From the IMG/VR virus record IMGVR_UViG_3300018486_000086: a stretch of 5,179 bases of DNA; one strand, given 5' to 3'. Below the pieces are notes generated by a model, which did not search any database, was not told the DNA's origin, and saw only the letters and a program-made list of their open reading frames with translations. This document shows positions 4,760 through 5,158 of the stretch, piece after piece. Each line of letters begins with the position of its first letter. Position 1 is the first letter of the stretch. Both the position numbers and the translations under genes were made by a program. The stretch comes from a virus (taxonomy: Duplodnaviria; Heunggongvirae; Uroviricota; Caudoviricetes).

Positions 4760-5158
4760 ATGGCTAAGCAACAAACGAAAGAAATAAACCAAGATGATGT
4801 AAAAGACAACAAAAATATGCCACCTCATATATGCGGCATTATTATGCCAATTGCGGACATAGAAGGTTATCCCACTGGACATTGGAGAAATGTTCATGAC
4901 ATTATTTGTGAAGCATCAAATGATGCCGGATTCAAGGCAAATTTGGTAAGTTCAGATGATGATGTTGCAGTAATACAAAAACGAATTGTTCAAAATCTTT
5001 ATGAAAACCCCATAGTTGTTTGCGATATAAGTGCTCGAAACGCTAATGTAATGTTTGAATTAGGAATGCGTCTCGCATTTGACAAACCGACCGTAATTAT
5101 TAAGGACGAGCGCACTCCTTATAGCTTTGACATTTCATCAATTGAACATTTAGAGTAC
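4760..5158 (+). CDS. 5' part of a nucleoside 2-deoxyribosyltransferase-like / TIR-like Rossmannoid protein, 3'-truncated by the adapter
   Basis: Open frame from ATG 4760 to the adapter junction, with AGGAG at 4743-4747. It translates to MAKQQTKEINQDDVKDNKNMPPHICGIIMPIADIEGYPTGHWRNVHDIICEASNDAGFKANLVSSDDDVAVIQKRIVQNLYENPIVVCDISARNANVMFELGMRLAFDKPTVIIKDERTPYSFDISSIEHLEY. The block D-x4-N-x-N-V-x-F-E-x-G-x5-KP-x-V-I matches the core motif around the conserved Glu in the deoxyribosyltransferase / LOG / TIR-like clade. It is visibly the AT-richest stretch of the window. Confidence 0.5.

Follow-up and report, generated by a model that had tools for sequence, protein, structure and literature searches.

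A relative of the ThsI effector module with a hypervariable tail in temperate Escherichia coli phages: a candidate stand-alone immunity protein

The last open reading frame (ORF) of IMG/VR virus record IMGVR_UViG_3300018486_000086, a 5,179-nucleotide stretch of Caudoviricetes DNA that is called the window below, encodes the N-terminal catalytic-type domain of an accessory ('moron') protein of a temperate E. coli phage or prophage. We infer that the full-length protein is a stand-alone, prophage-carried sensor-effector of immunity that cleaves the N-glycosidic bond of a nucleotide, a reading to which we give a somewhat better than even chance. Sequence and profile comparisons show that its N-terminal domain and the first helix of the stalk that follows are homologues of the effector module found in ThsI, the cADPR-activated effector protein of type VIII Thoeris. 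The family to which it belongs has lost, or never had, the TPR-S sensor of ThsI and its ThsB TIR partner. The homology to ThsI, the hypervariable C-terminal tail, the stand-alone and sporadic distribution and the lysogeny-type positions in other phages together speak for a role in immunity and against one in phage metabolism.

Both the fold and the effector module have been described before. No description of the stand-alone family with interchangeable tails was found in the searchable literature, and it is absent from PADLOC v2 and Pfam. Literature searches on prophage defence proteins resembling nucleoside 2'-deoxyribosyltransferases (NDTs) or on integron cassettes turned up nothing that names the family, and the relevant terms are absent from a survey of E. 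coli TIR proteins (PMC11350192).

The gene and its full-length product

Both ends of the window are exact TruSeq adapter sequence. The window is thus an adapter-bounded insert with no natural contig end, and the adapters cut a gene on either side (34–261 and 4760–5158). As the first-pass annotation of this DNA had recognized, the gene is therefore partial; its frame stays open up to the exact TruSeq junction. Freed of adapters, the insert is 5,127 bp long. It matches three phages of E. coli that are temperate (vB_EcoM-606R2, -689R2 and -611R5; ON470579, ON470582 and ON470588) at 99.1–99.6% identity, with the exception of positions 826–1133, which carry a different short segment. A literature search on phage vB_EcoM-606R2 found no paper.

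The 399 nt of the ORF are 100% identical to phage ON470579 and to chromosomal prophage copies, and the full-length gene that the first-pass annotation had sought could be recovered from these near-identical E. coli prophages. The same locus occurs in 24 of 5,426 complete E. coli genomes as a gene of 918 nt that encodes a single 305-residue protein (WP_001551510.1; positions 9001–9918 of the E. coli prophage locus L009) made up of an α/β domain, a helical stalk and a tail of about 90 amino acids. It is intact in 23 of the 24 chromosomal copies (99.5–99.6% identity) and interrupted by IS1 in the remaining one (NZ_AP045179). The prophage adjoins an integrase near yfhL. A strong hairpin (−21 kcal/mol, z −5) follows the stop codon of the full gene. 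The gene had been placed at the 3' end of an operon; this does not hold, since in the complete phage and prophage a SNF2 helicase gene comes next on the same strand.

The annotation of the deposited phage genomes gives the gene a length of 163 amino acids, with an orphan 103-residue ORF after it. A (CAAT)n tract that begins 19 nt past window position 5158 (L001, ON470579 11557–11572; E. coli prophage locus L009, 9418–9429) accounts for the difference. It has three units in the 24 E. coli chromosomal copies, four in the three phage records and two in an Enterobacter relative, and the fourth unit causes the frameshift that leads to the 163-residue product. The variation could reflect on/off switching by slipped-strand mispairing or a single mutation.

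The ORF is not a chance frame, as can be seen from 304 homologues in a word-indexed database search (E down to 5e-51), about 1,400 family clusters (1,396 at 50% identity and E<1e-30 in an exhaustive profile search) and the invariant residues of its motif.

Several unrelated insertions of the gene or prophage lie near lepA or in the pdxJ-era-rnc-lepB-lepA region (L005 and L007, metagenome; L009, E. coli). These could mark a shared integration hotspot or be a coincidence.

Fold and putative active site

The first-pass annotation had singled out a block D...N-x-N-V-x-F-E-x-G...KP-x-V-I as characteristic of the deoxyribosyltransferase and TIR-like clade. The block is present exactly as described and reads C-D89-I-S-A-R-N94-A-N96-V97-M-F99-E100-L-G102, followed by K109-P110-T-V112-I113. 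In a 44-sequence family alignment Asp89, Ser91, Asn96, Val97, Gly102, Arg104, Lys109 and Pro110 are invariant, while Asn94 and Glu100 are found in at least 90% of the sequences. Glu100 is invariant in the 101 family representatives.

The AlphaFold model of the 133 residues has a mean predicted local distance difference test score (pLDDT) of 81.7, with about 90 in the core, and forms a β-α-β sandwich with strands 23–28, 58–62, 85–89 and 111–114 and helices 39–55, 69–82 and 95–106. A fifth strand, which is not in the fragment model, is placed at about residues 130–133 by correspondence with residues 134–137 in the model of P0166, a 72%-identical orthologue, which was built from 101 representatives (pLDDT 78.5). 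The stalk falls outside the window. The P0166 model consists of a five-stranded α/β part (27–137), two long helices (143–166 and 192–215) and a small α/β part (234–308). The five-stranded parallel α/β fold of the solved NDTs is thus found in the predicted structure, and in a Foldseek search of the PDB with the fragment model NDTs are the best matches (E 5e-4), followed by DNPH1, BcmB and TIR domains.

At the level of sequence no curated profile takes in the protein. The threshold of PF05014 (cut-off 28.8 bits) is not reached by the fragment (14.1 bits), the full-length protein (13.2) or the best family member tested (21.9), and that of PF10137 (cut-off 24.7 bits) is not reached by the fragment (14.9) or the full-length protein (16.2). 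PF15891 and PF14359, the other two families against which a check had been proposed, give no match at E<=5, and an NCBIfam scan gives none either. The sole PADLOC match is to the CBASS 'TIR effector' profile (E 5e-7), and the matches in PHROGs, phrog_3634 and phrog_10872, are both families without an assigned function. A profile search of the PDB with the family returns only DNPH1/Rcl at non-significant E-values of 0.2–1. The original NDT/TIR-like assignment therefore stands for the predicted fold and the motif, with no Pfam, NCBIfam or PDB sequence threshold reached.

The comparison with the Nribosyltransf clan of Pfam, which includes NDT, DNPH1 (Rcl) and MilB/BcmB, points to Glu100 as the putative catalytic residue. 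It sits at the start of helix 3 and falls on the catalytic Glu104 of DNPH1 in the lone PDB sequence alignment, which is itself non-significant (E 0.19); the DNPH1 numbering offset of 17 comes from two mutant chains, D80A and D80N. The first-pass annotation required the motif glutamate to align with the catalytic nucleophile of the clade, and this alignment, which is not significant alone, would agree with that. The active site of NDT and DNPH1 also includes an N-terminal tyrosine after strand 1 and an acidic residue of helix 2, which is Asp80 in DNPH1. Neither of these supporting residues is found in the target family: strand 1 reads C-G-I-[IV]-M-P-I, with no tyrosine, and in the same non-significant alignment (E 0.19) the general acid Asp80 of DNPH1 lies opposite the invariant Ile76. 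In PF05014 the loop before the glutamate reads D-x-G-T-x-x-E, whereas it is N-x-N-V-M-F-E in the target, which scores 14–22 bits against the cut-off of 28.8; the 'KP' after the helix is shared. Unlike NDT, DNPH1 and MilB/BcmB, the target carries an added helical stalk and a variable tail. As modelled, the domain has an NDT/CMP-hydrolase fold that is related to TIR, with an invariant glutamate in the putative position of the nucleophile.

Relationship to ThsI of type VIII Thoeris

Type VIII Thoeris was described in the preprint 'Systematic discovery of TIR-based immune signaling systems in bacteria' (10.64898/2025.12.03.692087). In this system a TIR protein makes canonical cyclic ADP-ribose (cADPR) upon infection, and ThsI, the effector, carries the annotation 'CMP hydrolase and TPR' (10.64898/2025.12.03.692087). 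Validation was done with phage T6 for the system of Yersinia enterocolitica and with T2 for that of a Pseudomonas scaffold, and both defence and cADPR-dependent toxicity were reported (10.64898/2025.12.03.692087). Our literature search for follow-up work on the activity of ThsI found none.

The Yersinia ThsI was picked as the 417-residue TPR-S protein encoded directly upstream of a TIR gene whose product is 100% identical to the published TIR domain. The 133 residues of the window align to it in BLASTP with 30% identity over 125 amino acids (E 7e-12), and the family profile matches it in hhalign with a probability of 96.7% (E 3.4e-10). Against a profile of the ThsI clade the match rises to 98.3% (E 1.9e-14) over 159 columns, which take in the complete α/β domain as well as the Y-T-T-F-L motif and the first helix of the stalk. 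The target family and ThsI thus share the N-terminal α/β domain and, beyond it, the 'Y-[ST]-x-[FL]-L' region and the opening helix of the stalk, together with the signature [ST]-x-x-N-x-N-x-x-x-E-L-G-x-R. Both are found on mobile elements and in defence-type neighbourhoods.

Distant relatives found by tblastn on plasmids are annotated as TPR or TIR proteins. One of them, on the Acinetobacter plasmid pAR1, is a 407-residue protein with the same N-terminal module followed by Pfam TPR-S (E 1e-19); it is 47% identical to the Yersinia ThsI and is flanked by three ThsB-type TIR genes. In seven diverse aligned proteins (three core-family members, three distant phage homologues and this Acinetobacter ThsI orthologue) Ile72, Ser91, Asn94, Asn96, Glu100, Leu101, Gly102, Arg104, Lys109, Phe123, Asp124 and Tyr133 are invariant. 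In a 30-sequence alignment of the ThsI clade the two asparagines, the glutamate, the leucine, the glycine and the arginine of the signature are likewise invariant, and Ser91 is Ser or Thr.

As an observation in its own right, the A. radioresistens pAR1 cluster (L093, 3962–6806) is type VIII Thoeris-like, with three TIR genes and one ThsI orthologue, and lies beside an IS5 transposase. Several TIR genes with a single effector have been described for type III, which has a SLOG-domain effector (10.64898/2025.12.03.692087).

The two groups differ in what follows the module. TPR-S (PF20308) and DUF4071 are missing from the target family, which has a hypervariable α/β tail of about 90 residues instead. 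A search for TPR-S was negative for the 305-residue E. coli protein and the other members, whereas ThsI proteins give PF20308 at E 1e-19. The family also lacks an adjacent ThsB TIR gene. When the 913 ORFs that lie up to 6 kb from 77 family loci were scanned with a ThsB hidden Markov model, a single marginal match (E 1e-4) came up, while four of five ThsI-clade loci were positive. The homologues in Klebsiella, Pantoea and Latilactobacillus phages also have no annotated TIR gene beside them. With neither TPR-S nor a ThsB partner, the target family is unlikely to be controlled by TIR-made cADPR in the way of ThsI and represents an orphan branch of the ThsI effector module.

A conserved core with hypervariable tails

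Family members are mostly 290–310 residues long and occur in 304 of about 185,000 species genomes, with 55–77% identity to the window fragment across phyla. They are found in Gamma-, Beta-, Alpha- and Deltaproteobacteria, Bacteroidota, Acidobacteriota, Verrucomicrobiota, Lentisphaerota, Nitrospinota and Firmicutes. Over 12,561 pairs the median identity is 69% for the core, 41% for the stalk and 18.5% for the tail, the last being close to the 17.7% of shuffled tails. In 847 pairs the cores share at least 80% of their residues, and in 699 of these the tails still share less than 25%; BLAST sorts 109 tails into 97 groups that are not linked to one another. A tblastn search with the E. coli-type tail matched only the three known phages. 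The core of the family is under strong purifying selection.

Copies from different phyla can have cores that are 96–99% identical and tails that are only 50–60% identical, as in Sphingobacteriales, Gallionella, a deltaproteobacterium, Aquirhabdus and Undibacterium (L014, L017, L018, L019 and L021). This points to very recent transfer between phyla together with rapid divergence of the tail.

An all-against-all BLAST of the 913 neighbour ORFs found no conserved neighbour gene within 6 kb. The defence-type neighbours include MADS, AriA, LmuA, SAVED-TIR, DRT, a dCTP deaminase and several PDC candidates. Public records call some members 'RNA helicase' (P0015 and P0032; Chryseobacterium and Vibrio cholerae), a name that finds no backing in any domain search and is probably a propagated misannotation.

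In other temperate phages the homologues take positions that are typical of prophage-expressed genes. In a P2-like element of Pantoea the gene has the CI repressor on one side and the integrase on the other and shares their strand, and in Klebsiella element 1 LV-2017 it is immediately 3' of the integrase. The copy of Latilactobacillus phage TMW 1.46 P1 runs antisense to the early lytic operon, in the direction of the genes for the repressor, superinfection immunity and the integrase. A lambdoid Klebsiella phage carries it in the accessory region located between the replication and the nin genes. For the E. coli phage the evidence of this kind is weaker.

Comparison with other immune proteins

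In Swarozyc a TIR-like NADase is joined through a helical stalk to a C-terminal sensor that binds the phage portal (10.64898/2026.05.01.722283). The layout of the target, a catalytic domain followed by a helical stalk and a C-terminal domain, makes KpSwz of Swarozyc its closest architectural analogue. The likeness is one of architecture only: membership of the DUF4062/NIR group (Swarozyc, Vulcan and Vesta) was considered and rejected, as the full-length proteins give no Pfam DUF4062 match at E<=5. The TIR NADase SpbK interacts with YonE, a protein of SPbeta (PMC12847820).

The NDT-like N-glycosidase of Retron-Eco1 (Ec86) hydrolyses NAD(P)+ (PMC12673091). By analogy, an NDT-fold domain acting as an immune toxin is the best precedent for the chemistry predicted here. 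In Retron-Eco1 the effector is restrained by a complex of reverse transcriptase and multicopy single-stranded DNA, whereas no retron genes lie near the target's family. With Cap12 and PycTIR (PF10137) the target shares the motif 'N-V-x-x-E-x-G'; it differs from them in staying below the PF10137 threshold and in having no cyclic-nucleotide sensor domain. A relation to MisA of Metis was also considered and dropped, since MisA is an unrelated protein of PUA and metallophosphatase domains.

Proposed function and alternative explanations

In the mechanism that we propose, the protein would be expressed from the prophage or another mobile element, and its variable tail would recognize a trigger, which could be a small molecule or a protein that an infecting phage brings in. 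The helical stalk would relay the signal, a shift in oligomeric state being the probable means, and the N-terminal domain would then hydrolyse the N-glycosidic bond of an essential nucleotide. NAD(P)+ is the candidate substrate with the best precedents (Retron-Eco1, Cap12, PycTIR, KpSwz of Swarozyc and SpbK); the alternative suggested by the fold matches is a (deoxy)nucleoside monophosphate, (d)NMP, such as CMP. The outcome would be arrest of the infected cell and of the phage. The CAAT frameshift in three phages and the IS1 insertion in one chromosome are signs of a costly gene and count in favour of this mechanism. So do the low GC of the gene relative to its flanks in 71 of 72 loci, the sporadic spread over many phyla and the minority of immediate neighbours that match defence models or integrases, all of which fit a mobile, immune-type context.

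A number of points weigh against an immune role. For this family it is proposed on the strength of comparison, and for ThsI itself manipulation of the nucleotide pool is hypothesized as the activity (10.64898/2025.12.03.692087). The 69% conservation of the core across phyla is unusual for immune proteins and would also suit a constrained metabolic enzyme. The immediate chromosomal neighbours are mostly housekeeping genes, with, by simple count, a minority that match defence models or integrases. The E. coli phage copy stands inside the replication module and on its strand, 15 nt after VRR-NUC, and could thus be an early lytic gene. A promoter of its own is possible on weak evidence: the predicted site is no better than chance, as promoter-like and terminator-like sites around the gene are no more frequent than in shuffles, which weakens the idea. 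The copy in the window ends before the CAAT tract, so it may be the intact or the frameshifted allele. Finally, the tail is modelled with moderate confidence (pLDDT 41–84 per ten-residue block), and no ligand or partner is predicted for it.

The homology to a cADPR-responsive effector and the co-oriented position of the E. coli phage copy, embedded in an early replication module, would also suit a phage counter-defence protein directed at Thoeris-type immunity: an early N-glycosidase that destroys cADPR, its isomers or other nucleotide messengers, or a ThsI-mimicking decoy that soaks up the signal. TIR-made signals are known to be cleaved by enzymes such as XopQ and RyR-domain proteins, and signal degradation was among the roles proposed in the first-pass annotation. 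We regard this as unlikely, because TPR-S, the presumed cADPR sensor, is precisely the part that is absent and because a hypervariable tail is unexpected for an enzyme that acts on a universal small molecule. Most members, moreover, are chromosomal and lie among housekeeping genes without phage genes nearby, and positions in lysogenic operons or antisense to lytic ones argue for expression in the lysogen. An ordinary enzyme of phage nucleotide metabolism (a deoxyribosyltransferase, an N-hydrolase of dNMPs or CMP, or an enzyme of DNA base modification or pool remodelling) would account for the strong conservation of the core, the location among replication genes and the best structural matches, which are bona fide NDTs, DNPH1 and MilB/BcmB; viral proteins of the NDT fold are also numerous. 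The PF05014 threshold is not reached, however, and in the lone alignment the position of DNPH1 Asp80 is an invariant isoleucine. Enzymes of this sort have no use for the additional stalk and the hypervariable tail, the distribution is sporadic (about 0.2% of species), no conserved modification partner genes are found nearby, and the disruption of the gene in vB_EcoM-606R2, -689R2 and -611R5, three isolated phages, indicates that it is apparently dispensable. This explanation is very unlikely in our view. The roles in DNA or nucleotide-pool modification or in the degradation of nucleotide signals that were first suggested thus keep a small share of the probability, the closest demonstrable relative being the immune effector ThsI.

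The gene might also be a decaying, non-functional remnant in this lineage, as the CAAT expansion that truncates the protein at 163 residues in three phage genomes and the IS1 copy in one chromosome would suggest. With intact genes in 23 of 24 chromosomes, 133 stop-free codons in the window that are identical to the intact allele and a family core under strong purifying selection, this is quite improbable. Least credible is a two-gene Thoeris-like prophage system in which the TIR-like gene at 3269–4030 makes a signal and the target is the effector. The genes are on the same strand, 730 bp apart, both are lower in GC than the surrounding module, and the target is homologous to a Thoeris effector. 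The upstream gene, on the other hand, encodes a TIR of the PF10137 (Cap12/Pycsar-effector) type, a PDC-S35 candidate that does not belong to the signal producers of ThsB type; the two genes are set apart by three unrelated ORFs, VRR-NUC among them, and by a terminator-like hairpin, and the target has no TPR-S, the proposed signal sensor. The pairing is not conserved either: phmmer found no counterpart of the TIR-like gene near 77 other family loci, in line with the annotation of the Klebsiella, Pantoea and Latilactobacillus phages described above.

More tentatively, and with a probability clearly short of even, the stand-alone immunity protein may belong to a large TIR-independent class of single-protein immune sensors derived from the type VIII effector module. 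In such a class a near-invariant N-glycosidase 'warhead' and its stalk would be combined with hundreds of interchangeable tails of about 90 residues, each for a different phage protein or signal, and slippage of (CAAT)n would switch the gene off and on in E. coli prophages.

Implications

If the proposed immune function holds, the Thoeris effector module is also a widespread orphan, with about 1,400 clusters in Proteobacteria, Bacteroidota, Acidobacteriota, Verrucomicrobiota and Firmicutes. Sensing would have shifted from a TIR-made second messenger to a fast-diversifying, built-in tail, a clear case of parts being exchanged between stand-alone sensor-effectors and immune systems that work by signalling. 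With its 918-bp gene in a tractable host, the copy in E. coli prophages offers an easy route to the 'CMP hydrolase' chemistry of ThsI, and the natural diversity of the tails is a ready library for mapping what such proteins detect. The annotation of members that are now called 'hypothetical protein', 'RNA helicase' or 'nucleoside 2-deoxyribosyltransferase' can also be corrected.

Base composition

The gene had been called the AT-richest of the window, and with a GC content of 36.3% (27.8% at third codon positions, GC3) it does have the lowest value, by a narrow margin over the reverse-strand ORF 870–1085 (38.0%, GC3 25%). The insert as a whole has 48.5% and the flanking forward genes 45–54%. 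The conclusion that had been drawn from this, a recent horizontal acquisition, does not follow. The GC content of the gene lies below that of its flanks in 71 of 72 family loci, by 11.5 points on average; being common to the whole family, low GC is no evidence for a particularly recent arrival in this phage.

Neighbouring TIR-like gene and other features of the window

The coordinates of the features are collected in Table 1. The first-pass annotation had regarded the target as a second member of the superfamily of the nearby TIR-like gene, on the other side of VRR-NUC. The distance and order are correct (730 bp, a stretch that contains three small ORFs, one of them VRR-NUC), and the kinship holds at the level of fold and motif. 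Direct homology was rejected: the target family profile against the protein of 3269–4030 gives a probability of 2.4% in hhalign (E 0.019), with only N-V-x-x-E-x-G-M aligned, and the pairing is not conserved at other loci. The gene at 3269–4030 is a second defence-type accessory gene in the phage replication module and no conserved partner of the target; the two TIR/NDT-fold genes of this prophage look like independent accessory genes in variable slots.

Table 1. Features in and around the target gene (window coordinates)
Feature	Position	Strand	Remarks
Adapter	1–31 and 5159–5179		Exact Illumina TruSeq match; 5159–5179 is the start of the adapter and 1–31 the opposite adapter; phage sequence diverges there
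TIR-like gene	3269–4030	+	PF10137 E 2.9e-31; PADLOC candidate single-gene system PDC-S35 E 1.3e-108; phrog_16442
Terminator-like hairpin and T-run	4053–4071		After the TIR-like gene
Promoter-like site TGGATA-16-TATATT	4698–4725	+	In the 3' end of VRR-NUC, where GC begins dropping; 9 of 12 consensus matches
Shine-Dalgarno-like AGGAG	4743–4747	+	12 nt 5' of the ATG; overlaps the VRR-NUC stop codon (4742–4744); read from the sequence
Target ORF	4760–5158	+	ATG at 4760; 133 codons, stop-free, cut by the adapter; start of the 305-residue WP_001551510.1
Leader, residues 1–22	4760–4825	+	pLDDT about 50; columns variable or gapped in the family alignment; poorly conserved
Predicted NDT/CMP-hydrolase-like (TIR-related) α/β domain, residues 23–133	4826–5158	+	
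Signature block D89-I-S91-x-R-N94-x-N96-V-M-F-E100-L-G102-x-R104-...-K109-P110-T-V-I	5024–5098	+	Codon of the putative catalytic Glu100, GAA, at 5057–5059

The segment 826–1133 is a variable accessory slot between an SSB-like gene and the DNA polymerase gene. In the window it holds a 71-residue minus-strand ORF (870–1085, GC 38%, phrog_3261, with a weak match to DUF2158). The otherwise 99%-identical phage and prophage records have another segment there, of 721 bp, with a 209-residue reverse-strand gene of 28.7% GC, whose Pfam matches to the small membrane-protein families DUF5325 and DUF350 are non-significant (E 0.5–1.5). The small ORF 4095–4229 (phrog_2227) corresponds to a pseudogene in the E. 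coli prophage (L009, 8336–8514), annotated in RefSeq as 'ANR family transcriptional regulator, frameshifted'.

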